NCBI GenBank assembly: GCA_947481985.1 | Contig: CANKIK010000023.1 | Location: forward strand, 1 to 42,065 | Length of the DNA stretch: 42,065 nucleotides | Source: Planctomycetaceae bacterium | GTDB lineage: Bacteria; Planctomycetota; Planctomycetia; Pirellulales; UBA1268 | Reading direction: 5' to 3' | Shown: positions 2,288 to 29,068 of the stretch, piece after piece | How the letters are laid out: the number at the start of each line of letters is the position of its first letter | Position numbering within the stretch: the stretch's first letter is position 1 | Notes under the pieces: model-generated | Seen by the model: the letters and a program-made list of their open reading frames with translations, nothing else | Told to the model about the DNA's origin: nothing | The model's database searches: none | Position numbers and translations under genes: made by a program

Positions 2288-2835
2288 CGTGATTTCCTCC
2301 AAAGGGATGGGGAGAATACCACGGCGGCCCTCCAGGGATACAACCACTCCCGCTGCAGTCCATGACCAGAGGGAGCAGAGGGGGCAGAAGCACGTCTTGT
2401 GCCGACACCAAACCGATTCGTCTGATCTGCTTGCCGGATCGGCTTTTGCGCGCAATCCGTGGAATCTGCTGCGGTCGCTTTGTCGGAGCGCGGTATACTT
2501 GGGGCGTCGCCGAGTCGTGGCCGAAAAAAGCCGCGAACGGGGGAACCAAACCAGTGTGGTCGATTGCTGTTGCGAAGCGGCGGCCACACCCGGGGCGTAG
2601 GTTCAGAAATGAACCAGGGTACTTTCAAGCCCGAGCCCGTCAGCTAACCCCGTAGGCATGGTCGGACGCGGTGTCCGGCCCGATTTGAAAGGGCATTCTT
2701 TCGCTCCCTCGCAGGAGCGCGAAGGCCCTGGGTTTGCTACGGGCGTCGTTCCTCCCGGTGGCCATCGTGCGCCCCCGCCTGAGCCTCCGACGCCGGAGGG
2801 CTTGTGACGTGTCTTTCCAAAGTCCCCTGACGGGG

Positions 2836-5353: not shown

Positions 5354-7378
5354 GTGAGTTGTCATCGCAGAGGCCGGTGGATCGCAATCGCAGCGTTGTG
5401 GATGGCTGGCGCGGCCGGATGGAGTGGCCCACGGGGCTTGCAGGCTCAGGCCCCTGTTTTGCAGCCGTTGACCGGGGAGCAGCGCCAGTCGCTTGAAGAC
5501 GGCTTGCGGGCATTAAACCTTTCGCTTGAACCTGCCCAGGGGCCAGTCCCCCAGGATCGCGCCGACGCAGCGATCTTCGCCAAGGGCCTGACGTGGGCGC
5601 TGCGGTATGACGCTGAATTCTCCGCCGCAGAAGTAACGCAACTCAATCAGGCGCTGAAGCGCGGCAGCGAGCGATTGGCAGCCCTCGTCGACGGCCGGCG
5701 CCCCTGGGCCGAGCGACGCGGAAAAATAGTCCTGGGGTATGTCTCGCGCATCGACGGCTCCCTGCAGCCGTACGGTCTCATCGTGCCGAAAACCTACGAC
5801 CCGCAGAACGCGATGCGGCTCGATGTCGTGTTGCACGGGAGTACCCGCCCCGTCGGCTCCAGCGAGTTGAACTTCATGGCCCGTTTCGATGAAGGGGACG
5901 AGCCGAATGCGCATCCGCCTGACGTCTCATGGATCGAACTCCATCCACTCGGCCGGGTCGAAAACTGCTATCGCTGGTCGGGCGAGAGTGACGTCTTTGC
6001 AGCCATCGAAGACGTCGCTCGTCGCTACCACATCGATCGCGATCGGATCGTCCTCCGTGGCATGTCGATGGGAGCTTCGGGAACGTGGCATCTCGGCCTC
6101 AAGCACCCGGATCAGTTCGTGGCGCTCGGGCCGTATTGCGGGTATGTCGACACGCATCGGTTCTCCGAAACACCGATCCCCTCGTTTATCAAGGTTGGCC
6201 CCTTGCCGGAGCATGAGGAACTTGGCCTGCACATCCTCGACTCCGTCGACTATGCCGCCAACGCCAGCGTCGTTCCGGCCATCGCATGCATGGGGGACCA
6301 GGATGTCTTCTTTCAGGCTCACGTGCTGATGGAAGAGGCGCTGCGGCGCGAGGGACTGGAGATGATCAACCTGATCGCGCCGGGAACAGGCCATGTCATC
6401 GATCCCGCCACGCATGCCGAGCAGATGCGGCAAATCGGCGCGCACGCCGATCGCGGCCTGAACCACTCCCCAAGGGAGTTGCGGTTTGTCACCTGGACTT
6501 TGAAATATGGCCGCTGCCATTGGCTCCAAGTGCTCAGTCTCGATCGCCATTACGCCAGAGCGGAATTCGCTGCCCGAGTGCGTGGCGACAGCCTTGAGGT
6601 CGCCGAACCGCTGAATATCAATCGATTTTCCATCGATGTCGCCAAGCTGCCCCGGACGGTGGAGACCATCCGGATCGGAGCCACTGCGCTCGCACTTCCC
6701 CTCTCCGGAGTGCCGCCACGCAGCCCGCTTGTTTTTTTTCGGCATCAACAGGCGTGGAGCATTGCCGGCGATGATTCGGTCCCGAAAGCGGGCAAACGCC
6801 CCGGGCTCCAGGGCCCGATCGACGATGCATTCACCGCGCCGTTCCTCTGCGTGCGCGGAACTGGAACACCCTGGAACCAGGCCGTGCACGAGCACGCCAT
6901 CAACAGCTTGAATCGATTTGCCGATGAGTGGCACCGCTACTTTCGCGGCGACCTGCCGATCAAGGACGACTCGGCGGTGACCGCAGAGGATCTCCAGACC
7001 AAGAACCTGATTCTCTTCGGCGATCCGGGGAGCAATGTGTTGATCGCAAGCGCCCTGCCTCGGCTTCCGATGGAGTGGACGAGACAGACCCTCCGATTGG
7101 GAGGACAGGACCACCCGGCTGCCAACCACATGCCCGCACTGATTGCCCCCAATCCACTGCCCGGCGCAGCGGAGCATTACGTTGTCATCAACAGCGGCCA
7201 CACCTTCCGCGGGGCAGATCTGGGCGCCTTGAACTACCTCCTCTTCCCGCGCTGGGGCGACTGGGCCGTGATCCAAGTCCCCGCTGCCCACCCCGCCGAA
7301 GAACCGCTCCCGGACCAGGTCTTGGATGCCGGATACTTCAACGAGCAATGGCAAGGCACGTTGGGGACCGCCCCCTAA
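5354..7378 (+). CDS. secreted alpha/beta-hydrolase-fold serine hydrolase (esterase/peptidase-like) with large C-terminal extension
   Basis: GTG start with signal-peptide-like N-terminus (RRGRWIAIAALWMAGAAGW..AQA). GxSxG nucleophile motif GMSMGASGTW, with LDVVLHGS upstream. Ends at TAA 7376-7378. The 669-aa minus-strand ORF 5927-7936 is its antisense shadow. Confidence 0.7.
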   Translation: MSCHRRGRWIAIAALWMAGAAGWSGPRGLQAQAPVLQPLTGEQRQSLEDGLRALNLSLEPAQGPVPQDRADAAIFAKGLTWALRYDAEFSAAEVTQLNQALKRGSERLAALVDGRRPWAERRGKIVLGYVSRIDGSLQPYGLIVPKTYDPQNAMRLDVVLHGSTRPVGSSELNFMARFDEGDEPNAHPPDVSWIELHPLGRVENCYRWSGESDVFAAIEDVARRYHIDRDRIVLRGMSMGASGTWHLGLKHPDQFVALGPYCGYVDTHRFSETPIPSFIKVGPLPEHEELGLHILDSVDYAANASVVPAIACMGDQDVFFQAHVLMEEALRREGLEMINLIAPGTGHVIDPATHAEQMRQIGAHADRGLNHSPRELRFVTWTLKYGRCHWLQVLSLDRHYARAEFAARVRGDSLEVAEPLNINRFSIDVAKLPRTVETIRIGATALALPLSGVPPRSPLVFFRHQQAWSIAGDDSVPKAGKRPGLQGPIDDAFTAPFLCVRGTGTPWNQAVHEHAINSLNRFADEWHRYFRGDLPIKDDSAVTAEDLQTKNLILFGDPGSNVLIASALPRLPMEWTRQTLRLGGQDHPAANHMPALIAPNPLPGAAEHYVVINSGHTFRGADLGALNYLLFPRWGDWAVIQVPAAHPAEEPLPDQVLDAGYFNEQWQGTLGTAP

Positions 7379-7475
7379 CAGCCCGTGGAAAAAGTCATCC
7401 ATGACCTTTTTCCACTTGAAAAACCTCCGGTTTTCTCGAGTGCTACGCACTCGCGACTGCCTCGTGCAGTCGGAT
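7379..7475 (+). other. conserved multi-hairpin 3' element, copy 1 (candidate structured RNA / complex terminator)
   Basis: AT-rich island in a high-GC region, starting 8 nt after the TAA. Hairpins: TGGAAAAAGTCATCC/ATGACCTTTTTCCA (7386-7414); CACTTGAAAAACC-TCC-GGTTTTCTCGAGTG (7415-7444); CGACTGC-CTCGT-GCAGTCG (7454-7472). About 82% identical over 97 nt, no indels, to the reverse complement of 26221-26317. Confidence 0.6.
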
Positions 7476-7582
7476 CGGCAGTTTATCCACGGCCCCCTAA
7501 CCGGCGACAGCACCGGGCCGCTCACCGGGATCGTTGCCTGACAACAGCCTTTCAGGGCCGAAGCATCCTCTGGGGAACTGAT

Positions 7583-8041
7583 CATGCTCGCGAAGCACTG
7601 GTTGCTGGTAGTGGTGATGCACGGCACGACCTCGTTCGCCGAGGCTTCGACTGCCGACTCGAGGGCATCGTCTGGACGACCGGCGAGAACGATGCCTTCT
7701 TTGGCCCCTTCGCCCAGCACCATGCTGCGACGTTCCAAGCGCTTGTCGAACAGACGCGAATCGACCTGAAACAACCGCAACTGCCTTGGGTGATTGCCGC
7801 ACTGCACAGGAACGCGCCGTGGGGAAACGGAAGCGCGGTCAACGCCGGACTTACGCAACGTGCGCGGACACTTTCTGGCATCGAGGTGGTGGAGACATCG
7901 CAACTCCCCTACCTTCGCGCCCAGTACGGCACCCACGGCACACTCCTCCTCGGAGAGAAACTCGCCGCTGCATTCCTGCCTTCCCTGCAGCCAGCCCTTG
8001 CGCCTGCAAAACCAGAGAGCCAGTCAACCGGGGAAAGATGA
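7583..8041 (+). pseudogene. truncated sialate-O-acetylesterase-like SGNH hydrolase (DUF303/SASA family), C-terminal part only
   Basis: Frame-2 translation carries the C-terminal SASA-family blocks: LEGIVWTTGENDA (cf. WYQGESD), QPQLPWVIAAL (cf. QPELPF..QL), GTHGTLLLGEKLAAAF (cf. D..H....G...LG.RLA). The N-terminal GQSNM block is absent in all frames. There is no ATG/GTG/TTG in frame between 7560 and 7690. The frame is the same as the upstream hydrolase, separated by a single TAA and the hairpin element. Confidence 0.5.
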
Positions 8042-15909: not shown

Positions 15910-18615
15910 ATGTCGCAGCAGCGTGGGGGACGGATCGTCGCGGCTTCCTTCCTCGCCGGCCTCGTGGCCGCGACGGGAGTCGGGCCGTTGGTCCTTGTCC
16001 CGCTGCACGAGTCACTCTTCGCCGAGGAGAACCTGCCACGTCATCGGCAAGCGGAGTTTTATCCCGACCAGCCGCCGGCGGCGCCGATCTCCGACGCCGC
16101 GCCGCCGTCCCCCAAGAGCAACGGCAAAACGTGGCAGGGCACCGGCGACCTCCGCAGGCTCGCTCCTGCCTCCCAAGGTGTCGTTCCTGTACAGAAGGCG
16201 CAGGCCAGCCACCGTCCAGTAGTGCTCGTCGCAGCCCCGGTGACGAAAACCGCCAGCCCGCTGCTGACGCGCACTTCGGCAGTCCCGCCGCCGGTGGTCC
16301 CGCGCATCGATACCGCCCGGCGGATTCCCAATCAACCTTCTTCCACGGGCGTCGGTCGTCGTTCTCCTCAGGTGATCGCAGTCCAGTTCGCTGAACCGCT
16401 GTCGGCTGGCCAGGACCTCGCTGCGGCAGCGGCCAGCGCCCCACCGCCGGCTGTGGCATCCCCCGAAACAAAGCCTGTCGCCCCCCGGATCGACCGCCAC
16501 TCCGACCCGGACAGCATCAACTGGTCGCACGCCCCGACCGATGCGGTGCAACCTCTCGAGCCCCCCGCCCCCGGCTCTCGAAGGGGGCCGGTGGCCGATT
16601 GGCTCCGCGACTCGTTCGACGACATCAAGTCGGCACGATCCCAGACGGTCCCCTTCCCGCGGAGGCCGACTTCGTCGACGGCCACCGGCAGTGGTCGGTT
16701 GATCGAGCGGCTCCGGCTCGGGGAACGTCTCCTGGCCCGCGACCGCAAAGACGCTTCGGCTCCGACAGCGCCCCACGGCGAAGACTATGCCACCGGCATC
16801 TGCGACTGGCCGGTGGCGATAAAACTCCATCAGCAGATCGACCTGCTCGCCAAGCCAGGGGGCAGTGAAACAACTGCCTCGGTCCGTTGGGCCGCCGACA
16901 CCGGCGCGATCCTCAAGCGATTGCGGGGGACAAGGGGACCGTGTGACCCGACCGCCGCCACCGGGCTGGCGGCGCTTGAATCGACGGCCGACGCCGGCAT
17001 GCGACTGGCCGACTCCACTACAGACGCCACTCGCGCCGCCACGCTCCGCCGAGCGGCGTTGGCCGTGCAGCGCCGATCCGCGGTCTGGAAGGGAGCGATC
17101 GATGTCTGCACGCAGGCGGCCGACAGATCAGATGCCGCCGCCAGAGAACGATCTGGCGACCTGCTCGCCGAGAGCCGGCTGGAGGCCGACATCATCGCCG
17201 TGCTGGCCGCCCTGGAACGGCTCGAGGAATCGGGCTCGGCCGCCGATGCAGCCGCCATCGCTGCTGCCGTGGCTCGGATCGAGGATGGTCGCTCGACGAG
17301 TGCGGATCGGTTTGCCGATGCGGTCCGCACCCACTACTCCGCCGCCAATGTCCGGGTGGCTGTGCACCAGAAATTCCTCGAGCGGTTGCTCCCTGTCACC
17401 AGCGTCACGACCGCTCCGGTTGATGACAGGGTCCTGGGCCGTCAGGTCCGGGGAACGAGCACCCTCGAGCGTTCCACCGGCGTCCGGTTCGTGCCCGACA
17501 CCGACGGAATCTCCATGAATCTTGAGATTCGGGGCGATGTCGCCTCGCGGACGGTCACCGCATCGGGGCCGGTGTCACTGACGTCGAAGGGTTCTTCCTC
17601 GTTCACTGTCCGCAAGCCGGTGACGATTGGCGAACAAGGTCTTGTCTTCGGCGCAGCCCGCGGTTCGGCCTCGTCTCGCTCGCACTTATCCAATATCCAG
17701 ACCAGTTTCGACGGCGTCCCAATCATGCGGTCCCTGGTGCGGAACATCGCCCGCAACCAGCACGACGAACATCTCCCCGAAGCCAACCGCGAGGTGATCG
17801 ACAAGATCATCGCCCGCGCCTGCCGTGAGGTCGATCAGCAGGCTGAACCGCAGTTCACACAGATGGCCGATAAAATCCGTCTCCAGGCGTGGGAACCGCT
17901 GGAGCGCTTGGGGCTGGAGCCGACCGCGCTCGCCCTCGAGACCACCGCGGGGGTCGCCACGGCCCGGCTCCGACTGGCAGCCCAAGACCAACTTGCGGCC
18001 CACACACCGCGGCCGCGGGCCCCGGCCGGCTCGTTGCTCAGCGTGCAGGTTCACCAGTCGGCGGTCAACAACGCGCTGGAACGACTGGGGCTGGCCGGAC
18101 GGCAACTGTCGCTGGAGGAACTGGTGACGCTGCTCTGTGAGCGCGCGGGGATTGAGCCCCGTGTGCCCGAGGAGACTCCCGAAGGGGTGGAGATCACCTT
18201 CGCCGCAGAACAACCGCTGTGGGTGGAGTACCGCGACGGGTTGGTGCACGTCCGCATCTCGCTGGACTCGATCGAGAGTGGCCGCCGCAGCTGGCGGGAC
18301 ATCGTCGCCTCAGTCACCTACCGACCGAAGGCAGTCTCGCCGCAAATCTTCCTGGAGCGAGAGGGTCCTGTGCATATCGGGGGGCCGGGCCACCAGGGGC
18401 GCGCTGAACTGGCACTGCGGGCGATCTTCGGGAAGATCTTCCCCAAGGAGCGTCCGCTGCCGCTGCTCCCGGAGACGATTGCCTCCAATCCTCGAATCAC
18501 CGATCTGGCGGTTCTTCAGGCCGCCAGCACCGACGGCTGGTTTGCGATCTCGCTCGGTGAGTTGCCAGCCCCCGTGGCCGTCGCCGCGCCGGCCCGCCGC
18601 ACCCTGCGGAAGTGA
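15910..18615 (+). CDS. hypothetical Ala/Pro-rich exported or membrane-anchored protein (~900 aa)
   Basis: Long ORF with sustained coding-like composition. Probable start at ATG 15910, giving MSQQRGGRIVAASFLAGLVAATGVGPLVLV (N-terminal anchor or signal). The track start 15784 adds an implausible leader. No recognisable catalytic motif. Confidence 0.6.
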   Translation: MSQQRGGRIVAASFLAGLVAATGVGPLVLVPLHESLFAEENLPRHRQAEFYPDQPPAAPISDAAPPSPKSNGKTWQGTGDLRRLAPASQGVVPVQKAQASHRPVVLVAAPVTKTASPLLTRTSAVPPPVVPRIDTARRIPNQPSSTGVGRRSPQVIAVQFAEPLSAGQDLAAAAASAPPPAVASPETKPVAPRIDRHSDPDSINWSHAPTDAVQPLEPPAPGSRRGPVADWLRDSFDDIKSARSQTVPFPRRPTSSTATGSGRLIERLRLGERLLARDRKDASAPTAPHGEDYATGICDWPVAIKLHQQIDLLAKPGGSETTASVRWAADTGAILKRLRGTRGPCDPTAATGLAALESTADAGMRLADSTTDATRAATLRRAALAVQRRSAVWKGAIDVCTQAADRSDAAARERSGDLLAESRLEADIIAVLAALERLEESGSAADAAAIAAAVARIEDGRSTSADRFADAVRTHYSAANVRVAVHQKFLERLLPVTSVTTAPVDDRVLGRQVRGTSTLERSTGVRFVPDTDGISMNLEIRGDVASRTVTASGPVSLTSKGSSSFTVRKPVTIGEQGLVFGAARGSASSRSHLSNIQTSFDGVPIMRSLVRNIARNQHDEHLPEANREVIDKIIARACREVDQQAEPQFTQMADKIRLQAWEPLERLGLEPTALALETTAGVATARLRLAAQDQLAAHTPRPRAPAGSLLSVQVHQSAVNNALERLGLAGRQLSLEELVTLLCERAGIEPRVPEETPEGVEITFAAEQPLWVEYRDGLVHVRISLDSIESGRRSWRDIVASVTYRPKAVSPQIFLEREGPVHIGGPGHQGRAELALRAIFGKIFPKERPLPLLPETIASNPRITDLAVLQAASTDGWFAISLGELPAPVAVAAPARRTLRK

Positions 18616-18870
18616 CGCCAGCGAGGCCGCTCTCTGGCAGAGTCGTCAGCAGCGCCACGCGTCGTCGGGAGCGAAGGCCCGGACAGGGGGCACCTTCACC
18701 CTCCACCACGACAACCTCCCCATCCCTGCCGCCATCCCGCTCTTTTGGGAAGAATTCTCCAGGCACGCTCCACACACCGGCTCAAGCGGTCCTCCCGTTG
18801 CACTGCAGGGCCGGCGGACGAAAAATTGCAGGCTCCCCCCTCCCCCACACGCTCCCTCCGGAACCGACCA

Positions 18871-20280
18871 ATGGCTACTCCCTCCACCCGCACCGAGACC
18901 GACAGCATGGGGGCCGTCGAGGTCGCCTCCGACCGCTACTGGGGCGCCCAGACGGAGCGTTCCCGAGACAACTTTAAAATCGGCCTCGATCGCTTCGAGT
19001 GGGGCCGGGCGGTGAAGAAGGCCCTCGGGATCCTCAAGAAATCGGCGGCGCTTGCCAACGGTGAGCTCGGGCAGATCCCCGCCGAGCGGGTGCGGCTCAT
19101 CGTCCAGGCGGCCGACGAGGTGATCGCCGGGAAACTCGACGACCACTTTCCGCTGGTGGTCTTCCAAACCGGCAGCGGTACACAGTCGAACATGAACGCC
19201 AACGAGGTGATCTCCAATCGCGCTATCGAGATCGCTGGCGGTGTGATGGGGTCGAAGTCACCGGTCCACCCCAACGACGACGTCAACCGCGGCCAGTCGT
19301 CCAACGACACCTTCCCCACTGCCATGCACATCGCCGCCGTCGAGGTGATCCACGATCGCCTCCTGCCGGCGGTGCGGTCACTCCGAGACGTGTTTGCTGA
19401 CCTCTCCCAGCGGACGGCGAGCGTCGTCAAGATCGGCCGCACCCACCTCCAGGATGCGACCCCAATCACCCTCGGCCAGGAGATCTCGGCCTGGCAATCC
19501 CAACTCGACGACCGGATCGCCTCCATCGAACGGTCACTGCCCGGCCTCTATGAACTGGCAATCGGCGGCACGGCCGTCGGCACCGGGCTCAACGCCCACG
19601 CGAAGTTTGGCGACGTCGCGGCGAAGTTCATTGCCAGAGAGACCGGCCACCCCTTCGTCTCGGCGAAGAACAAGTTTGCTGCCCTCTCAGCCCACGATGC
19701 CCTCGTTGATGCAAGCGCCGCCGAGCGCAGTCTGGCGATGGCGCTGCTGAAGATCGCCAATGACATCCGCTGGCTGGCCTCCGGGCCACGCTGCGGGATC
19801 GGCGAGATCTCGATCCCAGAGAACGAACCGGGCAGCTCGATCATGCCGGGCAAGGTCAACCCCACGCAGTGCGAGGCGATGACGATGGTCTGCGTCCAGG
19901 TGTTCGGCAACGACGCCGCAGTGGCCTTCGCCGGCTCACAGGGCAACTTCCAACTCAACGTCTACAAGCCGGTGATGATCCACAACGTGCTGGAGTCGGC
20001 CGACCTCATGGCCGACGCCTGCGACTCGATGCGGATTCACTGTGCGGTCGGCATCCAGCCGAACCTCGCCCGCATCCGCCACAACCTCGACGAGTCGCTG
20101 ATGCTCGTCACCGCCCTCAACACCCACATCGGCTACGAGAAGTCGGCGAAGATCGCGAAGAAGGCCCATCAGGAGGGGACGAGCCTCAAGGCAGCCGCCG
20201 TCGCCTCGGGGCACGTTACGGCAGAGCAGTACGACCAGTGGGTTGTCCCGGCAGAGATGACCCGGCCGCTGTCGACGTGA
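18871..20280 (+). CDS. fumC: class II fumarate hydratase
   Basis: Start [18 protein letters not shown] at ATG 18871. Fumarase/aspartase signature [20 protein letters not shown]. 469 aa. Confidence 0.93.
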
Positions 20281-20298
20281 TGGCCCTCTGGTCGACGG

Positions 20299-20362
20299 CC
20301 AGACGCAACCGCCAGACGCAACCGCCAGACGCAACCGCCAGACGCAACCGCCAGACACCCCG
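20299..20362. repeat. 13-bp tandem repeat CCAGACGCAACCG, 4 full copies plus a partial
   Basis: Read directly at 20299-20311, 20312-20324, 20325-20337, 20338-20350, then ccagacaccccg. Begins 19 nt after the fumC stop. Confidence 0.85.
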
Positions 20363-20401
20363 CCGGGCGAACCGGTGGCACTTGCCGCGACGGGCCTGGC
20401 G

Positions 20402-20429
20402 GCTGCACGGCCCCAGATGGCCGTGCAGC
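20402..20429. terminator. GC-rich hairpin between convergent fumC and glnB (putative bidirectional terminator, no U-tract)
   Basis: Perfect inverted repeat gctgcacggcc (20402-20412) / ggccgtgcagc (20419-20429), 6-nt loop. Extendable by 2-3 bp (g401-c430, c400-g431). Confidence 0.5.
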
Positions 20430-20437
20430 CGTGAAAT

Positions 20438-21108
<671 letters not shown>

Positions 21109-21138
21109 TGGTGACTCGGCTTGCCCCTGCCGCGGGGG

Positions 21139-22584
21139 TCAGCCGGGGTGTGGCCCAAGTCCACGAGGATCACCTGCCTGAGGTTCCTCGACCGGGCGGC
21201 GGAATGTGGCCCCGTCGAGGGAATGCCCCTTCATCAGCCGGTAGAGGGTGCCCCGCGGCAGGCGGGCCTCGCGGGCGGCGGCGGAGACGTCGCCCTGGTG
21301 GCGGGTGAGGAGATCGCTGAGGAATTGACGCTCGAAGCGGGCGATCTGTTCGGCCCGCTGCGCAAAGAACCCCACCGCCCCGGCTTCGGCGCCGGCCGAT
21401 CGCCCCGCGGCGGTGACGACCTCGTCGGGAAGATCCTCAACCCCCACCACTGCCGCCCTCGACATAGCGATCGCCCGGCGAACGATGTTTTGCAGTTCGC
21501 GGACATTCCCCGGCCAATGGTAACTGCGGAGCACCTGGTAGGCATCCGGGGAGATGCCACCGATCTGGCGGCTCATTTCCTGGCTGGCCCGGTTGGCGAA
21601 CGACTCGGCGAGCAGGCCGATGTCGTCACCACGGCTCCGCAGCGGAGGCATGTCAATCCGCACGACATTGATCCGGTAAAAGAGATCGCGGCGGAATTCC
21701 CCTTTCGTCACCATCTCATCGATATTTCGCGACGTGGCTGCCACGACGCGGACGTCGACGGCATTCTCCTGTCTGGCACCGACGCGGCGGACGCGCCGTT
21801 CCTGGAGCACGCGGAGCAGTTTGGCCTGGAGCGGGAGCGGTAATTCCCCCACCTCGTCCAGGAATAAGGTGCCGCCATCGGCGAATTCAACCAGCCCCAT
21901 CCGTCTGGCATCGGCGCCGGTGAAGGCCCCCCGTTCATGGCCGAACAGTTCACTTTCCAGCAGCGCGTCTGGGATGGCACCGCAGTCGATCGGGACAAAC
22001 GGTCCCGCTGCACGCCGGCTGCGACGGTGAACGGCGCGGGCAACGAGTTCCTTGCCGGTTCCTGTCTCGCCGGTGACGAGCACATCCACGTTGCTGGCCG
22101 CCACCCGGTCGATGATCGAGTACACCTGCCGCATCGGTGGGCTCTCGCCAAGAAACCCTTCGAATGAATAGGGGCGCTCGACCACGCGGCGGAGCACCTG
22201 CTCGGCATCCCGGCGGCGGCTGGAGGCCAGGAGCCTTGCCAGACTGTCCTCCAGTTCGTCCTCGATACGGGCGAGGTCGAGATAGTCACCCGCACCGGCC
22301 TGAAGACATGCCCTGGCGGTTTCGACGTCCGGCCTGGAATCGATGACCACCAGTGGCAATTGGGGGTCAGCCGCGGCGATCGCCCCGTGGAGCCGCACCG
22401 CCAACTCACCGGCGCGTGTGGTGACGACCCCCAGATCCCAGGAGTCACGGGCGACGCTGTCGAGCACGCGCTCCAGCGACGGTTCGACCCGGACTTCCAT
22501 CGGCTGCAACCGGGCCACCAACCGGGCGTAGGGCAAGCCGCCAGAGCCGGCGGAATCGGCGATGAGGATCCGCGGCTGACGCAT
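21139..22584 (-). CDS. sigma-54-dependent transcriptional activator (NtrC/Fis family) with atypical receiver-like N-domain
   Basis: AAA+ sigma-54 interaction domain (VLVTGETGTGKELVARAVH, GAFTGA, ESELFGHERGAFTGA, R-finger region), C-terminal Fis-type HTH (AAAREARLPRGTLYRLMKGH). The N-terminal receiver-like domain (ILIADSAG..DLGVV..) lacks the conserved Lys. Start taken at ATG 22582-22584 (MRQPRILIAD). The track ORF to 22869 is a UTR extension. Confidence 0.85.
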   Translation of the reverse strand: MRQPRILIADSAGSGGLPYARLVARLQPMEVRVEPSLERVLDSVARDSWDLGVVTTRAGELAVRLHGAIAAADPQLPLVVIDSRPDVETARACLQAGAGDYLDLARIEDELEDSLARLLASSRRRDAEQVLRRVVERPYSFEGFLGESPPMRQVYSIIDRVAASNVDVLVTGETGTGKELVARAVHRRSRRAAGPFVPIDCGAIPDALLESELFGHERGAFTGADARRMGLVEFADGGTLFLDEVGELPLPLQAKLLRVLQERRVRRVGARQENAVDVRVVAATSRNIDEMVTKGEFRRDLFYRINVVRIDMPPLRSRGDDIGLLAESFANRASQEMSRQIGGISPDAYQVLRSYHWPGNVRELQNIVRRAIAMSRAAVVGVEDLPDEVVTAAGRSAGAEAGAVGFFAQRAEQIARFERQFLSDLLTRHQGDVSAAAREARLPRGTLYRLMKGHSLDGATFRRPVEEPQAGDPRGLGPHPG

Positions 22585-22861
22585 GGCGGGATGGGGTGGA
22601 CCGACGTCTGTGGATCCGAGAACTCTCCCGGACCGGGTCGCACCGGCCGCCTCTCCAGTGTGACTTGCCAGGGAGTATGCAGGCCCCGGGGCCAACGGGC
22701 AAATCGGGCCTGTCAAAAGCAGACCGATCGCTGCCCGCCGCCGCGGCCTCTGGTACATTCCGGTTTTCGGGCAGTCCGCCACTCCAGCCGCCGTTTCCAG
22801 GCGACCGCGGGCCGCCCGACCGCCGCCGGGGCGCACCCCGGGAGAGGAGATTCTGTCAACG

Positions 22862-25048
22862 ATGGCCATCGATCCCTACGCAGCCTGTCCGGGGGGCACC
22901 GGAAAGAAGATCAAGTTCTGCTGCGCCGATCTGGTCGGCGACCTGGAACAACTCGACCGTCTGCTCGAGGGTGAGCAGGTGTCGGCGGCGTTGGAGCAGG
23001 TCGAGCGGTTGTTGGCGAAGACCCCAAACCGGGCCTGCCTCTTCGCCACCCGCACCAAACTGCAATTGGCCTCGCGAAAATTCACCGAGGCTGCCACCGG
23101 CAGCGCGGAATTCCTCGCTGCCTTCCCCGACAACGGACTGGCCCTGGGCCAGTCGGCTGTCACCGCAGCGATCGCCGGGAAAATGCCGGAGGCGGCGGCG
23201 TTGTTTGACCGCGCCCGCGAGGTCGCCGGCAAGGAGGTCGGTCCTGAACTGGAGCGGATCGCGGCCACGCTCGTCCAGGTGGCAGCGCAGTCCGGACAGA
23301 CGGGATTCTCTCAGGGAATCGTGGAGTGGCTCTCCGATGCGGGAATCGGCACCGCCGAGGACCGGAACATGCTCGCCGCAGCGGTCGGACAGGCGGGCGT
23401 GCCCGCCGCCCTGCGGACCCGAGTGCTCTTCGAATCATGCCCGGACGACTCGCCGTGGCGTTTTGAGTTCGACATCAATCTCAAGGCTGCCCGCGAATGG
23501 CGTCTCTCCAAGGCGTTAACGGGCTTCCGTAGCCTGAAGAAGTTGGCCTCCCAGAGCCCGGAATTGGCTGCCAATCTGGGGCGTGTCTGCGAACTGCTGG
23601 CGCTGCCGTTTGAGGCCGCGGAAAACTGGCTGGCAGTGGCGCGGCTGCGGTCGGCCGACCATGACGCGGCCGTGGAAGCCACTGGCCGGGCGATGGCACT
23701 GGAGACGGAGGCCGACCAGGACCGCTCGCCGGTGATTCCCTTCGTCCGGTCGGCAGCGATGCTGCCGGCTGCTGAGGCCAGTGGCAACGGCCTCGACCTG
23801 ATGGAGGACAAATTCCGCCATGACGGCCGGTTCGAAACCGCCCCCTTCGACCGCTCGGAATGGGTTTCCCGCGGTGCGGTACCGCCACGATCGGTGTGGC
23901 GGGTCTACGACGCGCCCGGTGGCGATATGGCCGTCCCCGGCCGGTTGCTGGCCACACTTCTGGTCTTCGGTCGCCAGACCGACCGCGAGGCGGAATTGGT
24001 GCTGCAAGGGTTCGAGCCAGACGTCGCCGGAGCGGTGGCTGTCGTGGAGCCGATCTCCACCGTGGCGTTCAGCAGACTCCCCGACAATGGCCGATTGCCG
24101 GTGGCCACGCCGACGACTTGGCTGCTCTCGACCCAGTTTCGCATCGTCCCCCCCACGGTGCCTGCCGGCGGTACCCCTGTCGGCCAGCCTGGTCCGCTCG
24201 ACATCATGCTTGAAGGCCAGCGGCAACGGCTCTGGACGAGGTTTCTTGATCTCTGGCCCGACACCGCACTGCCTGAACTTCTCGGCAAGACTCCCCAGGA
24301 TGCGCTCCACGATGCCGACGGCGCTCGCCGCGTCGAGGCATTGCTCGTGGAGGGGGAGGCGACCAGCCGCCGCCGAGACGCCACCGAGGCCTGGGGCGCT
24401 CTGCGCGGACGACTCGGGCTCAAACCAGAACCGGCGATCCACTCCCAGAAACCACTGGAGGAAGTGCCGCCGATGCGGTGGCACCGCCTGGCACTGGATG
24501 GAATCGCTCTCGATGAACTCCGTGGCCTGTTCGTCACGGCGGTCGATGCGGGATTCGACCTGGCTGCCGAGCGGGCGGCCGAGGCGATCATCCTCCGGAC
24601 CGATTCGGCGCCGGAGGATCGCTGGGAAGCTCTCGGTCTCCTCGAGGAGCGGGCCCTGGAGAGCGTCCGCAAGTTGGAGATCATCGCCGAACTCCGGGGG
24701 CTCGCCGGGCAACTCAAGGCCAACGATGGCATGATCGACGTCTCCGAAATGCGCATCAGGCTGCAGCGCGGTGATCAGGCCGACATCATGCGGCTCCTGG
24801 ATCATCTCCGCCGCGATCACTCCCGCGACGCCAAGGTGCTGGAAGCCCTCGCTGAGGTCTTGATGGAGGCGGGAGTCGACCTCCCCGGGCTGACCTCGGC
24901 ACGGGGCGGGCCTGCCGGCATGGGCTCATCAGCGGCACCCGCGGGAATGTCGTCCCCTGGCTCCGCACCGGCAGCCGGTGGAATCTGGACGCCGGGTGGC
25001 GCCCAGCCAGCCCCGGCAGGAGAGAAAAAGACCATCTGGACACCGTGA
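22862..25048 (+). CDS. hypothetical SEC-C-motif protein with helical repeat body (728 aa)
   Basis: N-terminus AACPGGTGKKIKFCCADL resembles the SecA C-terminal zinc-binding SEC-C motif, with CPGG in place of CPCG. The rest is helical, Ala/Leu/Glu/Arg-rich and TPR-like. C-terminal Gly/Pro/Ala-rich tail. Stop TGA 25046-25048 lies 1 nt before the ribD ATG. Confidence 0.65.
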   Translation: MAIDPYAACPGGTGKKIKFCCADLVGDLEQLDRLLEGEQVSAALEQVERLLAKTPNRACLFATRTKLQLASRKFTEAATGSAEFLAAFPDNGLALGQSAVTAAIAGKMPEAAALFDRAREVAGKEVGPELERIAATLVQVAAQSGQTGFSQGIVEWLSDAGIGTAEDRNMLAAAVGQAGVPAALRTRVLFESCPDDSPWRFEFDINLKAAREWRLSKALTGFRSLKKLASQSPELAANLGRVCELLALPFEAAENWLAVARLRSADHDAAVEATGRAMALETEADQDRSPVIPFVRSAAMLPAAEASGNGLDLMEDKFRHDGRFETAPFDRSEWVSRGAVPPRSVWRVYDAPGGDMAVPGRLLATLLVFGRQTDREAELVLQGFEPDVAGAVAVVEPISTVAFSRLPDNGRLPVATPTTWLLSTQFRIVPPTVPAGGTPVGQPGPLDIMLEGQRQRLWTRFLDLWPDTALPELLGKTPQDALHDADGARRVEALLVEGEATSRRRDATEAWGALRGRLGLKPEPAIHSQKPLEEVPPMRWHRLALDGIALDELRGLFVTAVDAGFDLAAERAAEAIILRTDSAPEDRWEALGLLEERALESVRKLEIIAELRGLAGQLKANDGMIDVSEMRIRLQRGDQADIMRLLDHLRRDHSRDAKVLEALAEVLMEAGVDLPGLTSARGGPAGMGSSAAPAGMSSPGSAPAAGGIWTPGGAQPAPAGEKKTIWTP

Positions 25049-25049
25049 C

Positions 25050-26186
25050 ATGCCTGCTGACTTCGTCCCCGCGATGCGGCGGGCCCTCGAACTCGCCCGC
25101 CGCGGTGAGGGGCTCGTGGAGCCCAACCCGCAGGTGGGAGCGGTGGTCGTCGATGGCCATGGTCAGATTGTTGGCGAGGGTTGTCACGAGCGATTCGGTG
25201 GCCCCCACGCCGAGGTGATGGCCCTGGCCGCCGCGGGAGCCGCGGCACGGGGCGCCACGCTCCTGGTGACACTCGAGCCCTGTTGCCATCACGGCAAGAC
25301 CCCCCCCTGCACCGACGCCGTCATTGCAGCCGGTATCTCCAGGGTGGTGGTGGCGACCCGCGACCCCTTCCCGGCAGTCAACGGCAGCGGGATCGCCGCC
25401 CTTGAAGCCGCGGGGATTCCCGTCGAGACCGGGCTGATGGCGCCCGAGGCCGAGCGGCTCATCGCCCCATTCCGCACGCTGTTGACCGCCGGCAGGCCCT
25501 GGGTGATCGCCAAGTGGGCGATGAGCCTCGACGGCCGAATCGCCACCGCGACCGGCGAGAGCCAGTGGATCTCCGGGGAGGCGTCGCGGGGCGCCGTGCA
25601 TCGCCTCCGCGGGCGAATGGATGCGATTCTCATCGGCATCGGCACGGCGCTCGCCGACGATCCACTGCTCACCGCCCGCCCCGCAGGACTCCGTCGAGCG
25701 CTGCGGATCGTCGTCGACTCGGCAGCCCGCCTCCCCCCGACCAGCCGGCTTGTGCAGACAGCCCCCGAAATCCCGCTGCTGGTGGCCGTCGGGCCCGACG
25801 CCCCGGCCCAACGCACCAACCACCTGGAGTCGCTCGGCTGCCTGGTATGGCGGGGCAGCGAAGCCGACCGCGGGCTTCGCCTGCGGGAGCTCCTGCATCA
25901 CCTCGGTCAGCAACGCCTGACAAACCTCTTGGTGGAGGGGGGGAACGGGGTGCTCGGGAGCTTCTGCGACCTCAAGTTCGTCGATGAAGCTTGGGCGTTT
26001 GTGGCCCCGAAACTCATCGGTGGAGCCGCCGCACCAGCCCCGCTTGGCGGCCAAGGCCACCCCCGTCTGGCCGACGCCCCACGGATCGCTGTCGAGGAAT
26101 TGGCGAGCCTCGACGGCGACGTTCTCATCCGTGGCACCGTGATCCACGGCGAGGGCCGCGTCACAGAGGCGACAACGACTTCCTAA
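25050..26186 (+). CDS. ribD: bifunctional riboflavin biosynthesis protein RibD (deaminase/reductase)
   Basis: CMP/dCMP-type deaminase zinc motifs HAEVMAL and PCCHHGKTPPC. C-terminal RibD reductase domain (WVIAKWAMSLDGRIA..). Start at ATG 25050 (MPADFVPAMRRALELAR). 378 aa. Confidence 0.9.
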   Translation: MPADFVPAMRRALELARRGEGLVEPNPQVGAVVVDGHGQIVGEGCHERFGGPHAEVMALAAAGAAARGATLLVTLEPCCHHGKTPPCTDAVIAAGISRVVVATRDPFPAVNGSGIAALEAAGIPVETGLMAPEAERLIAPFRTLLTAGRPWVIAKWAMSLDGRIATATGESQWISGEASRGAVHRLRGRMDAILIGIGTALADDPLLTARPAGLRRALRIVVDSAARLPPTSRLVQTAPEIPLLVAVGPDAPAQRTNHLESLGCLVWRGSEADRGLRLRELLHHLGQQRLTNLLVEGGNGVLGSFCDLKFVDEAWAFVAPKLIGGAAAPAPLGGQGHPRLADAPRIAVEELASLDGDVLIRGTVIHGEGRVTEATTTS

Positions 26187-26220
26187 AAACTGGATTTTCC
26201 CGGCTGCGGTTCACCAACTG

Positions 26221-26317
26221 CCTCGACCGCACGAGGCGGTCGCGCGAGCAAAGCACTGGAAAAAACCGGCGGATTCTCCAGTGAAAAAAGGTCAGGGATG
26301 ACTTTCTCCACGGACAA
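26221..26317 (-). other. conserved multi-hairpin 3' element, copy 2 (candidate structured RNA / complex terminator)
   Basis: Reverse complement of 26221-26317 aligns without gaps to 7379-7475, with 10-mer blocks at 9/10, 9/10, 9/10, 7/10, 8/10, 8/10, 7/10, 9/10. It begins 7 nt after the stop (tag, plus 26318-26320) of the minus-strand PSCyt1-WD40 gene, in the same orientation. Compensatory changes: GACTGC/GCAGTC becomes GACCGC/GCGGTC, and CACTTGA/TCGAGTG becomes CACTGGA/TCCAGTG. Confidence 0.6.
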
Positions 26318-29068
26318 CTAGGGCTGGGAAGCCGCGGGCACAATCCCCTGGAGGGCGAGGAGTTCGCGAACAACCGCCTCAACCTCGGCCTGCTTCGCCG
26401 CCGCCAGAGCCTCCGCCGTGGCGGCCACCGACGCCGCCCCCTCGACCACCTGCGCCGCTTCGGCGAGGGGGCCGTCCATCTCGGCCACGGCAGCCACCAG
26501 CGCCGGCATCTCACCTTTGCGCTTCTCCATCATCGCCACGCTGTCGGCAGCCGCCTTCTCCCAGGTAGCCCGCTCAGCCGCCATTGCGTCCATCCCTTCC
26601 CGCATCCCCTTCACCTGTGCCGCCTTGGCCGCCAGCGTGTCGATGAGGACCTTATGGGCGGCGGCGAGCTCCGCGTCGCCTGCCGCGAGATCGAGCGCGG
26701 CCTTCGTCTGGGACGCCGCCTGCTCGAGGATGCTCGAGGCTTTCGTGATGATCTCAATCGTTCCCTGCTGGGCCAGCAGTTCCTGCTGGCGTTTGGCGAT
26801 CTTCTCCAGCAGCCCGGCATGCTCGCCGGCAGCAGCGGCAAGCGCGGAAGAGAGTTCCTCCACGGCCTTTACGCGCACTGACTTTTGGGCCTCGATCCCC
26901 CGACGGGCCTGTTCATCCCCAGACAACTTTCCGCGGGCCTCGGCCACACTCGCTTCGACCTGGCGGACGACCTGCTCGCGGGCGGAAACCGCCCCCGAGA
27001 GTTCGGTGTACTTCTGCATGAACGCCGCTTCACCCTGCCAGCGGGCCAGTTCGGCCTGCGCTCGATCGAGCTCGGCAGACAGTTCCACCACCTTGGTGGC
27101 AGCCACTGCAGCGCTGGCCTTGAGGGCCTCAAGCCCGGGCGTCATCTCGGCCACCTTCGCCGCCATCTGGTCGGCAGAGAGCTGCGCTTGATCGCGTTGC
27201 AGGGTCGATTGTGCGAGTTGCTTCTCGCTCGCGGCCATCCGATCAGCCGAGGCCGCCAACTCGATTTCCCTGGCGGCGATCGCCTCCCGCTGCAGCCTGA
27301 GCTTCTCGGCTACCTCTGCCAGCGTGTTCTTGGCGGCCTCGTCTGCGGGGTTCTGGGCCACTACAGACAGCGCCTGGGCGTGAGACTCCAGGGCCGGTGC
27401 GAGGTCACGGGCCGCCGCGACGGCCGCATCGGTGGCGGTCACATAGGCCGAAGCGGATTCGGTCTTCACAACCAGGGCGGCGTCAAATCCTTTCTGCATC
27501 TCCGCCAAGGTCCCGTCGGCAGAGGTCTTGGCCTGCACCACCCCGTCAAAGGCCTGCTGCATCCCGGCCAACTGCCCGGCAACCTCGGCAGCCACCGCTC
27601 TGGCCGGGTCCACCGCCGGGGAACGCTCCAGCACAGCCTTCTCGGCAGCCGCGATTCGCACCGCAATCGGCTCCGGATTAGACGACAGTCCGCCGGCACG
27701 GGTGGCATCTGCGGCCTTCCAGACGCGGATCTCACCGGTCCAGTCACCGACGATCACCGCATCGGTCTCATCACAGAACGATACTGCCAGACCGAGATCG
27801 GTACAGGGCTCAAACGCCTTCTGCTGAGTGCCATCCTGGGCCCACAACTTCGGCTGTTTGTCGCGGCCGATGCTGACAATCCGTCCGTCTCGGGTGAACT
27901 CGACTCCCGCCACACCGCCGGCGTGCGCGTTCCAATTCTTGACCTGTCCGCCATTCTCCATCTCCCAGAGGCGGATCGTGCCATCCTCACTCCCCGTGGC
28001 AAGGAGGTTGGAGTCGCCGCGCCAAGAGACCGCCGTGATCCCGGCGGTATGGCCGGCGAGAGTCAGGTAATCGCGGCCGGTCTGCGACTCCCACACCATC
28101 ACCCCGCCGTTGCGATCGCCCGTCGCCAGGAGCACTCCGTCAGGACTGAACGAGGCGGCCGTGACCCAGTCCGTATGCTTCTTCATCTCGTAGAGACGTT
28201 CCCCCGTCTCCGTCGAGTAGATCCGCACCACCCGCTGCGGCCCACCCAATGCCACGAAGCGGTGATCGGCACTGATGTCGGCGGCCAAGACCGTGTCGAG
28301 CTCGTCGCCGATCTCCATCACCCGTCGCCCGCTCGCCACGCTCCACACCACGACCTTCCCGGCGGCGCCCCCCCGACCGCCACCGGCGAGCACGAGGCTG
28401 CCGTTGCGGCTGAACTGCAGCACCTGCGGCCGCCCCTCAGGGAAGGGGAGCACGCCGGCGAGCTGCTGGGTGTCGGTGCGGTACAGCAGGACCTGTTTCT
28501 GTCCGCACACGGCTGCCAACGGAGCCCAGGGACTGGTGGCGATCGAGGTGCAAGCGCTGAGGCTGCGGGTGTGGACCGCCGGTTCCAACGGAAGATGTGC
28601 CGGGAGAGGGACAACCTGCGGCCGTTCAGTCGGCGCGGCGTCCATGGCAAGGTTGAATTTCTTTTTCTTCGGTGCCGCCGCCTTGCTCCCCCGGGTCTCG
28701 AGCACACCCCCATCGATCCATCTTTTCAACACGGCCCGCTCCTCCTCCGGGATCGGCGGGGAGTCTGGCGGCATCTTCGGCTCATCCTCTTGGGTGACGA
28801 GCTTGTAGAGATAACTGGCAGACGAATCGCCCGGCTCGATCGAACCACCCGATCCCCCTCCCGCCATCAAGCCGGTGTAGGTGGTGATGTCGAGGCCGCC
28901 GGCCTTCTTGTCAGGATTGTGGCAACTCCCGCACCGCTGCCGGAGCAGCGGGAGCACGTTGTCGTCGAACGTGACTGCCTCATCGGCAGCCATGGCACGA
29001 GCCGTCGGCAGGCCGACTGCCCAAAGCGTCGCCCAAAGCGTCGCCAACAGGATCCGTGTGGTGCTCAT
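26318..29068 (-). CDS. secreted PSCyt1 (planctomycete cytochrome-c-like) domain, WD40-repeat and long coiled-coil fusion protein
   Basis: ATG 29066-29068. Signal peptide MSTTRILLATLWATLWAVGLPTARA. PSCyt1-type block FDDNVLPLLRQRCGSCHNPDKKAGGLDI. WD40 repeats (LLATGDRNGGVMVWES, LLATGSEDGTIRLWEM). C-terminal ~450-aa Ala/Glu/Gln-rich coiled coil. Confidence 0.85.
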   Translation of the reverse strand: MSTTRILLATLWATLWAVGLPTARAMAADEAVTFDDNVLPLLRQRCGSCHNPDKKAGGLDITTYTGLMAGGGSGGSIEPGDSSASYLYKLVTQEDEPKMPPDSPPIPEEERAVLKRWIDGGVLETRGSKAAAPKKKKFNLAMDAAPTERPQVVPLPAHLPLEPAVHTRSLSACTSIATSPWAPLAAVCGQKQVLLYRTDTQQLAGVLPFPEGRPQVLQFSRNGSLVLAGGGRGGAAGKVVVWSVASGRRVMEIGDELDTVLAADISADHRFVALGGPQRVVRIYSTETGERLYEMKKHTDWVTAASFSPDGVLLATGDRNGGVMVWESQTGRDYLTLAGHTAGITAVSWRGDSNLLATGSEDGTIRLWEMENGGQVKNWNAHAGGVAGVEFTRDGRIVSIGRDKQPKLWAQDGTQQKAFEPCTDLGLAVSFCDETDAVIVGDWTGEIRVWKAADATRAGGLSSNPEPIAVRIAAAEKAVLERSPAVDPARAVAAEVAGQLAGMQQAFDGVVQAKTSADGTLAEMQKGFDAALVVKTESASAYVTATDAAVAAARDLAPALESHAQALSVVAQNPADEAAKNTLAEVAEKLRLQREAIAAREIELAASADRMAASEKQLAQSTLQRDQAQLSADQMAAKVAEMTPGLEALKASAAVAATKVVELSAELDRAQAELARWQGEAAFMQKYTELSGAVSAREQVVRQVEASVAEARGKLSGDEQARRGIEAQKSVRVKAVEELSSALAAAAGEHAGLLEKIAKRQQELLAQQGTIEIITKASSILEQAASQTKAALDLAAGDAELAAAHKVLIDTLAAKAAQVKGMREGMDAMAAERATWEKAAADSVAMMEKRKGEMPALVAAVAEMDGPLAEAAQVVEGAASVAATAEALAAAKQAEVEAVVRELLALQGIVPAASQP

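Follow-up and report, generated by a model that had tools for sequence, protein, structure and literature searches.

The convergent junction between ribD and a gene encoding a 916-aa PSCyt1-WD40 protein in a Planctomycetaceae bacterium holds an element that is very probably one copy of a non-coding MITE of about 127 bp, moved by a DDE transposase encoded elsewhere into sites of the form (C)TAG, TAA or TGA. Two copies of the element are present in the window, by which is meant the whole stretch of 42,065 nt that was analysed. They belong to a previously uncatalogued MITE family of freshwater Planctomycetota, and the kind of selfish DNA that this family represents is already well known. The family accounts for a multi-hairpin sequence that recurs after stop codons in freshwater planctomycete MAGs. 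It also accounts for many contig breaks and for spurious ORF starts, such as that of a 218-aa “SASA” call described below. There is a caution in this for annotators: the hairpins are not to be read as terminators or as riboswitch-like RNAs.

Two copies of the element in the window

An inverted-repeat search of the window paired positions 7373–7472 on the plus strand with 26224–26323 on the minus strand, over 100 nt, without gaps and with 81% identity (complementarity). The next-longest inverted repeat in the 42 kb was 41 nt. A preliminary description of this DNA had regarded the sequence at the ribD junction (here copy 2) as the same element as one at 7379–7475 (copy 1), lying on the minus strand, and this was borne out by the inverted-repeat search, by MAFFT and by a profile of the family. 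When the alignment of copy 2 to copy 1 was recomputed with MAFFT, the same ungapped alignment was obtained and there was no collapse. The sub-motifs AAAGTCATCCNTGACCTTTTT and CGCGACYGCCTCGTGCRGTCG occur exactly twice each in the window when up to three mismatches are allowed; the expectation from shuffled sequences is 0.00–0.01. The profile, built from 59 family members and run with nhmmer, found exactly two matches in the window, at 7376–7498 (+) with E = 3e-22 and at 26320–26202 (−) with E = 4e-17, the latter corresponding to profile positions 2–121. Both copies are of subfamily A, and in both the gene upstream has its stop codon within the CTAG or CTAA with which the copy starts. At about 127 nt the element exceeds the length first given for it, the earlier coordinates having cut off both of its ends.

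Copy 2 extends over 26195–26321 on the minus strand (about 127 nt), as judged from the nhmmer match and the family alignment, with the 3′ boundary placed to within about 3 nt. Its 5′ flanking CTAG, a target-site duplicate, lies at 26318–26321 (−), and the TAG at 26320–26318 is the stop codon of the PSCyt1-WD40 gene. The element was formerly held to start 7 nt past this TAG, which is not so; the terminal CTAG (26321–26318, minus strand) includes it. The placement at the PSCyt1-WD40 stop was right, and the 3′ end was wrong by about 25 nt, since a degenerate right inverted repeat carries the element on to about 26195. The element had also been said to fill most of the 131-bp convergent spacer, and it does occupy nearly all of the interval between the ribD stop (26184–26186) and that of the 916-aa gene (26318–26320).

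Hairpin 1 of copy 2, GTGGAGAAAGTCATCCCTGACCTTTTTTCAC (26281–26311, −), was found in the folds and in the family alignment, with two G.U positions relative to the consensus. Its 5′ arm and the preceding TTGTCC make up the left terminal inverted repeat. The middle hairpin, CACTGGAGAA / TTTTTCCAGTG (26254–26283, −), was recognised from the sequence, the folds and the alignment of subfamily A. It has a stem of 10 bp with one G.U, and where it stands the consensus of subfamily A has two small hairpins, H2 and H3. The outer stem CACTGGA/TCCAGTG noted earlier is present in the sequence, and can be extended to a 10-bp stem with one G.U; the inner stem AAAACC/GGTTTT ascribed to copy 1 is there as well. 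Hairpin 4 of copy 2, CGACCGCCTCGTGCGGTCG (26224–26242, −), is identical to the subfamily A consensus, and copy 1 has a compensatory U-A where copy 2 has C-G. It is followed by the degenerate right terminal inverted repeat, AGGCAGTTGGTGAACCGCAGCCGG compared with GGCCGGCACTTTATCCACAGCCTG in the consensus (26199–26223, −). In place of the 3′ CTAG duplicate, which is lost, the sequence is now GAAA; the 5′ end has stayed intact. Because the right repeat has decayed and the 3′ duplicate is lost, copy 2 is an old, partly decayed and now immobile relic, fixed in the species.

The limits of copy 1, previously 7379–7475, were corrected to 7375–7500 (+), a length of 126 nt with CTAA on both sides (7375–7378 and 7497–7500). 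The TAA at 7376–7378, within the 5′ CTAA, is the stop codon of a gene for a 674-aa Peptidase_S9-like protein. Hairpin 1 of this copy, GTGGAAAAAGTCATCCATGACCTTTTTCCAC, lies at 7385–7415 (+) and hairpin 4, CGACTGCCTCGTGCAGTCG, at 7454–7472 (+). When metagenomes were scanned with the C-terminus of the peptidase, copy 1 was absent downstream of 10 orthologous peptidase genes (52–75% amino-acid identity), and it is not a fixed part of the peptidase gene. A precise empty site was not obtained from those 10 orthologs, in which homology stops at the conserved C-terminus and the flanks are unalignable.

Copy 1 is bracketed by a 10-nt direct repeat, GCCCCCTAAC (7370–7379 and 7492–7501), which exceeds the 3–4 bp duplication of the family and could be chance in GC-rich DNA or the trace of a microhomology-mediated event. 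An ORF at 7385–8041 (+) has its GTG start inside hairpin 1 of copy 1. Its similarity to the SASA carbohydrate esterase domain is confined to the C-terminal half of that domain (profile positions 118–225 of 226), and in one public annotation it appears as a 218-aa SASA protein; it is probably a 5′-truncated gene remnant adjoining the MITE. Elsewhere in the window there is a c-di-AMP riboswitch (RF00379) at 2498–2673 (+), scoring 66.8 bits against a gathering threshold of 38, just upstream of a 793-aa SPFH/Band_7 ORF (2734–5115). Directly after the fumarase gene (18745–20280), five tandem repeats of a 13-nt unit, ACCGCCAGACGCA, occupy 20295–20359.

The family and its subfamilies

Further copies were collected by searching one genome per species for the exact 21-mer AAAGTCATCCNTGACCTTTTT of hairpin 1. 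More than 101 matching stretches were obtained, spanning at least 20 MAG assemblies, with up to at least 14 loci in a single MAG. Since every copy was collected through this 21-mer, the conservation of that core is inflated. Among the matches listed, about 90 were in GC-rich MAGs, mostly labelled Planctomycetota (Planctomycetaceae, Pirellulales, Planctomycetia), a few having other labels, and many lay within about 100 nt of a contig end. The family profile gave 115 matches in the window and 717 kb of fetched loci. The records of some host MAGs (L007, L009, L017, L032, L036, L040, L041, L050, L056 and others; L006, L010, L012, L013, L047) give the name Candidatus Kuenenia stuttgartiensis or Chitinophaga. 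These names look wrong; L056 is syntenic with the GC-rich planctomycete window.

The 59 distinct full-length copies measure about 126–127 nt from CTAG to CTAG, and have conserved ends and a variable middle. Their order is CTAG, CTGYCCGTGGAAAAAGTCATCCNTGACCTTTTTCCAC, the variable middle, (G)CACTTTATCCACAGCCTG and CTAG. From 5′ to 3′, the flanking CTAG is followed by the left repeat CTGYCCGTGGAAAAAGTC and by this repeat once more, internal and inverted; one or two more hairpins come next, then the right repeat (G)ACTTTATCCACAGCCTG and the second CTAG. Hairpin 1 is thus the left repeat paired with its own internal inverted copy. The terminal inverted repeats are about 19 nt long and imperfect: CTGTCCGTGGAAAAAGTC and the reverse complement of the 3′ end, CAGGCTGTGGATAAAGT(G), agree at 14 of 19 positions, including one further base per side. 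In the two window copies the left repeats are within two mismatches of the consensus; the right repeats are more decayed, and neither comes within two. The element has no ORF of its own, either in the 126–127 nt form or in a form of about 51 nt, which consists of just the two repeats joined (L009, L025, L044).

At least three subfamilies were distinguished, which differ in the middle hairpins. There are two or three internal hairpins, and their stems covary between subfamilies. Within subfamily C, columns 55/75 of the alignment are TA in eight copies, AT in eight, CG in one and GC in one, and columns 54/76 are GC in eight and CG in nine. Tandem copies with a single shared CTAG were seen at four loci (L060, L012, L006, L047). 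At L021, L046 (about 4700–4960) and L094 another MITE-like repeat, unrelated and about 200 nt long, with inverted repeats CTTCGACTTTTGCAGT and CTAG/CTGA flanks, is nested beside the element; it is absent from the window. The attC sites of integrons were considered and rejected as the identity of the element, since the copies are dispersed and not in cassette arrays, and the consensus is without R″/R′ core sites.

Target-site duplication and the putative transposase

The 5′ and 3′ flanks of 70 full copies were compared by permutation. The flanking tetranucleotides were concordant at positions 2, 3 and 4 (p = 0.023, 0.0002 and <0.0002, respectively), and there was no concordance at any of the eight positions to either side of the tetranucleotide. 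Concordant pairs other than CTAG, namely CTAA/CTAA, CTGA/CTGA, CTGT/CTGT and CTCG/CTCG, occur in all three subfamilies, and therefore were not inherited from a master copy. This concordance indicates a target-site duplication of 3–4 bp (CTAG, then CTAA and CTGA); the two lengths are indistinguishable because position 1 is nearly always C. Among 91 5′ flanks there were 39 CTAG, 9 CTAA, 8 CTGA, 1 TTAG and 1 TTAA.

It is from these features that we infer the mechanism of transposition and the type of the transposase, which is possibly IS5-like. The inverted repeats of the element may resemble the ends of the IS5 family. The duplication, of 3–4 bp as deduced here, is TA-centred and mostly CTAG or CTAA, and in this it is like that of IS5, which duplicates 5′-YTAR-3′ (PMC5009759). 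Unlike IS5, the element also has CTGA and other non-YTAR flanks, of which CTGA counts against a YTAR target; TTAG and TTAA are rare, so that the target looks asymmetric, and no transposase gene is linked to the element. The partner enzyme would come from IS630/Tc1, with duplication of the TA in CTAG, or from IS481, with a 6-bp NCTAGN duplication, rather than from an IS5-like source, only on an assumption that we consider unlikely. The IS630 family prefers CTAG, and IS481 shares this preference. Against IS630/Tc1, the concordance includes the fourth base (G or A, p < 0.0002), which is outside a TA duplication. The 6-bp duplication of IS481 needs identity at both positions −1 and +4, where identical pairs numbered 20 and 33, compared with 19.1 and 35.6 expected. 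IS481-type elements duplicate NCTAGN and can take a stop codon from the target (PMC2516522).

Still less likely, to the point of being very improbable, is a REP/REPIN-like or IS200/IS605-type palindrome that a Y1 (HUH) transposase would mobilise in single-stranded form, by recognising sub-terminal hairpins and cleaving at a conserved tetranucleotide, here CTAG, without duplication of the target. There are indeed sub-terminal hairpins at both ends of the element, and in subfamilies B and C the loop of the 3′ hairpin shares a CATCC motif with that of hairpin 1. The shortest form, about 51 nt in length, amounts to one palindrome between tetranucleotide tags, and REPs tagged with GTAG are known to supply TAG stops (PMC3733652). 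The flanks, however, co-vary within copies (p < 0.0002 at position 4), as is predicted by target duplication and not by an element-encoded cleavage site joined to a target. The tag is CTAG, not GTAG or CGTC, and the full element of 127 nt has true terminal inverted repeats; a REP or REPIN would be a palindrome of 20–40 nt with a GTAG or CGTC tag and no duplication. The loci, which were not designed to capture such a gene, contained no RAYT-like or TnpA-like ORF.

An autonomous parent of the MITE was sought in 111 fetched loci and the window. No two ends lay at a spacing typical of an IS, and no IS with ends matching CWGKCYGTGGAWAAAGT was found there. All-against-all BLASTP of 3081 ORFs from all loci revealed no repeated transposase-like ORF, and blastn of the element against a plasmid database gave no match.

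Stop codons and scarce target sites

Genes at the loci were called with a frame caller based on GC3 minus GC2, which replaced an analysis of longest ORFs that was too noisy in GC-rich DNA. In 53 of 88 cases the gene next to the 5′ end of the element is on the same strand and ends towards it, and 27 of these 53 genes have the terminal TAG, TAA or TGA of the element as their stop codon. On the 3′ side, the stop of 9 out of 36 convergent genes falls within the terminal CTAG. A few genes continue into the element as far as a TGA inside it.

The presumed target sequences are rare in this DNA. The window has 4 CTAG where base composition leads one to expect 133, 9 CTAA (72 expected), 3 TTAG (67) and 6 TTAA (36); CTGA and TCAG are near expectation. 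Because CTAG and YTAR sites are almost absent from this genome of 66% G+C, stop codons represent a large share of the targets that can be tolerated. The position after stop codons is better explained by a preference for CTAG, CTAA and CTGA targets amid very rare sites than by termination. More generally, where G+C is high and CTAG/YTAR extremely scarce, a target-specific transposon can be driven towards stop codons, which the duplication then rebuilds.

The following sequence of events is proposed. A DDE transposase from elsewhere would bind the two inverted repeats, and the element would be inserted into (C)TAG, TAA or TGA with duplication of 3–4 bp. The duplication would rebuild the stop codon of the upstream gene, leaving that gene unharmed and the element flush against it. 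Each insertion would also make a second copy of a rare target, and would therefore account for tandem and nested copies with a CTAG in common. The asymmetric duplicates are oriented: about 20 copies carry TAA or TGA on the 5′ side, and about three carry TTA or TCA. A simple symmetric-target model predicts neither these oriented duplicates nor the 5′-biased overlap with stops. That the end of a repeat supplies a stop codon is not new in kind, since it has been documented for GTAG REPs, the termini of which often supply TAG stops (Di Nocera et al., PMC3733652).

Hairpins and the question of a role in RNA

The preliminary description had suggested that the element may terminate transcription of both convergent genes, and this was not supported. 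A scan with a terminator consensus found one weak site per region, compared with 0.3–0.5 in shuffled sequences. The promoter/terminator scan of both regions revealed no G+C-rich stem directly followed by a U-tract, and no promoter-like sites. The nearest U-rich run, UUUAU, is 3–4 nt past the 3′ hairpin in subfamily B and about 11 nt past it in subfamily A. With respect to gene context, 21 copies of the family are convergent, 19 co-directional, 17 anti-directional and 7 divergent; the copies avoid promoter-side spacers and have no preferred orientation relative to the flanking genes (19 vs. 17). Comparison of the element with Rfam 15 yielded nothing at the gathering threshold, the best sub-threshold matches having at most 18 bits and E values of at least 0.4.

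One of these sub-threshold matches was to the TwoAYGGAY RNA motif, at 7383–7438 (−) of the window, with 18 bits against a gathering threshold of 43 and E = 2.3. On the minus strand, the loop of hairpin 1 reads AUGGAU and that of the 3′ hairpin in subfamilies B and C reads CUGGAU. The likeness to TwoAYGGAY is probably coincidental.

We consider it improbable that the element is instead a 3′-UTR RNA structure selected by the host, either a bidirectional intrinsic terminator or an mRNA-stabilising cluster of hairpins similar to REPs, with its place after stop codons reflecting that function. Copy 1 folds far better than shuffled sequences (z = −6.6), as such a role would have it, and copy 2 on the minus strand gives a modest z = −2.7. 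The stems covary between subfamilies, the 3′ ends of genes are favoured (21 convergent and 7 divergent copies), orthologous copies persist between species, and copy 2 retains hairpins 1 and 4 through G.U and compensatory changes despite the decay of its transposon ends. The absence of a G+C-rich stem followed by a U-run, the weak terminator scan, the lack of orientation bias and the lack of an Rfam family all speak against it. Strand-specific selection for an RNA was tested by the ratio of G.U to A.C. The raw value, 63:16, owes its excess to two invariant G.U columns at helix ends, in helices that had themselves been predicted from the plus strand; with these columns dropped, it was 25:16 and not significant. 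Inverted repeats, duplicated flanks, tandems that share a CTAG and copies at contig ends are features of transposons and not of terminators, and covariation between the arms of a DNA palindrome can also come from template-switch mutation.

In the middle hairpin, compensatory change between subfamilies is unmistakable, and therefore the formation of this hairpin is being maintained. Such maintenance could reflect the needs of transposition, template-switch mutation in palindromes, or selection at the level of the host. A host-level role of the hairpins in stabilisation of 3′ ends or in termination, which might come about as a side effect, is speculative.

Age, retention and mobility

A locus in a different MAG, L056, is syntenic with positions 18193–26386 of the window at 71–87% DNA identity, and at its own ribD/PSCyt1-WD40 junction it too has the element, oriented as in the window. 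There the stop of the PSCyt1-WD40 ortholog is a TGA 20 nt upstream of the element (L056 1–230 vs. window 26150–26380). The gene in the window is without 19 nt at this place and reads on to the TAG of the element, the end of which therefore serves as a back-up stop. Several copies in addition to copy 2 have been retained orthologously between species that are 71–92% identical in DNA. Look-ups of exact proteins placed the species in more than 50 assemblies, and both copies, with identical spacing, were in all strains read; copy 2 is identical in six strain assemblies. The family may be largely inactive, or may be retained for a reason.

It is conceivable that the family is tuned to stop codons, with its asymmetric C+TAG/TAA/TGA target and a 5′ end that abuts the stop, being in effect a transposon directed at stop codons, and that old copies such as copy 2 have been co-opted in freshwater Planctomycetota as structured 3′-UTR modules. 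We regard this as improbable. If true, it would explain both the persistence of copies at orthologous junctions and the hairpins that have outlasted the transposon ends, and the co-opted module would combine a back-up stop codon with stabilising or terminating hairpins.

No clean empty site was found among the peptidase orthologs, strain assemblies and pairs of loci examined. An apparent indel of 155 nt among strains proved to be a run of Ns. The pair L079/L081 was rejected since synteny breaks at the site, and the pair L050/L098 since it differs by an unrelated 773-nt gene indel. The case for mobility consequently rests on the statistical evidence for target-site duplication, on the tandem and nested copies and on the patchy distribution of the family.

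Comparison with known systems

The element shares with the GTAG REPs and REPINs (PMC3733652) the character of an extragenic palindrome near gene 3′ ends, in which a terminal tetranucleotide often gives a TAG stop, and its 51-nt form is a single palindrome. It differs from them in its CTAG tag, its length of 127 nt, its terminal inverted repeats and the duplication of its flanks.

A sister family was encountered in MAGs of Thermodesulfobacteriota/Deltaproteobacteria (L029, L037, L038, L063, L071, L074), found only through the shared 21-mer. It has the core of hairpin 1, AAAAAGTCATCCATGACCTTTTT / GTTGAAAAAGTCATCCATGACCTTTTTCAAC, with a compensatory change in the stem, GTTG...CAAC, where the planctomycete element has GTGG...CCAC. 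Its 5′ flank is likewise CTAG, CTAA or CTGA, and its end, CAGGATGTTGAAAAAGTC, resembles the right inverted repeat of the planctomycete element. In contrast, it is longer, has other internal hairpins and resides in hosts of a different phylum. If a partner transposase were found, the family would serve as a marker of transposon activity and of horizontal exchange among lake Planctomycetota, possibly with Thermodesulfobacteriota.

Among bacterial MITEs, the element may be compared with the Correia/NEMIS elements of Neisseria, the RUP elements of pneumococcus and those derived from the IS5 family. Like these, it is within the range of about 100–150 bp, has no ORF, and possesses imperfect terminal inverted repeats, a short TA-containing duplication and internal hairpins. 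The many dispersed and mostly intergenic copies, the subfamilies with differing internal segments and the tendency of copies to break short-read assemblies are also common to both. It differs in having no sequence similarity to any of them, in its uncultured freshwater planctomycete hosts, and in the position of its gene-proximal 5′ ends, about half of which lie exactly at the stop codon of the neighbouring gene.
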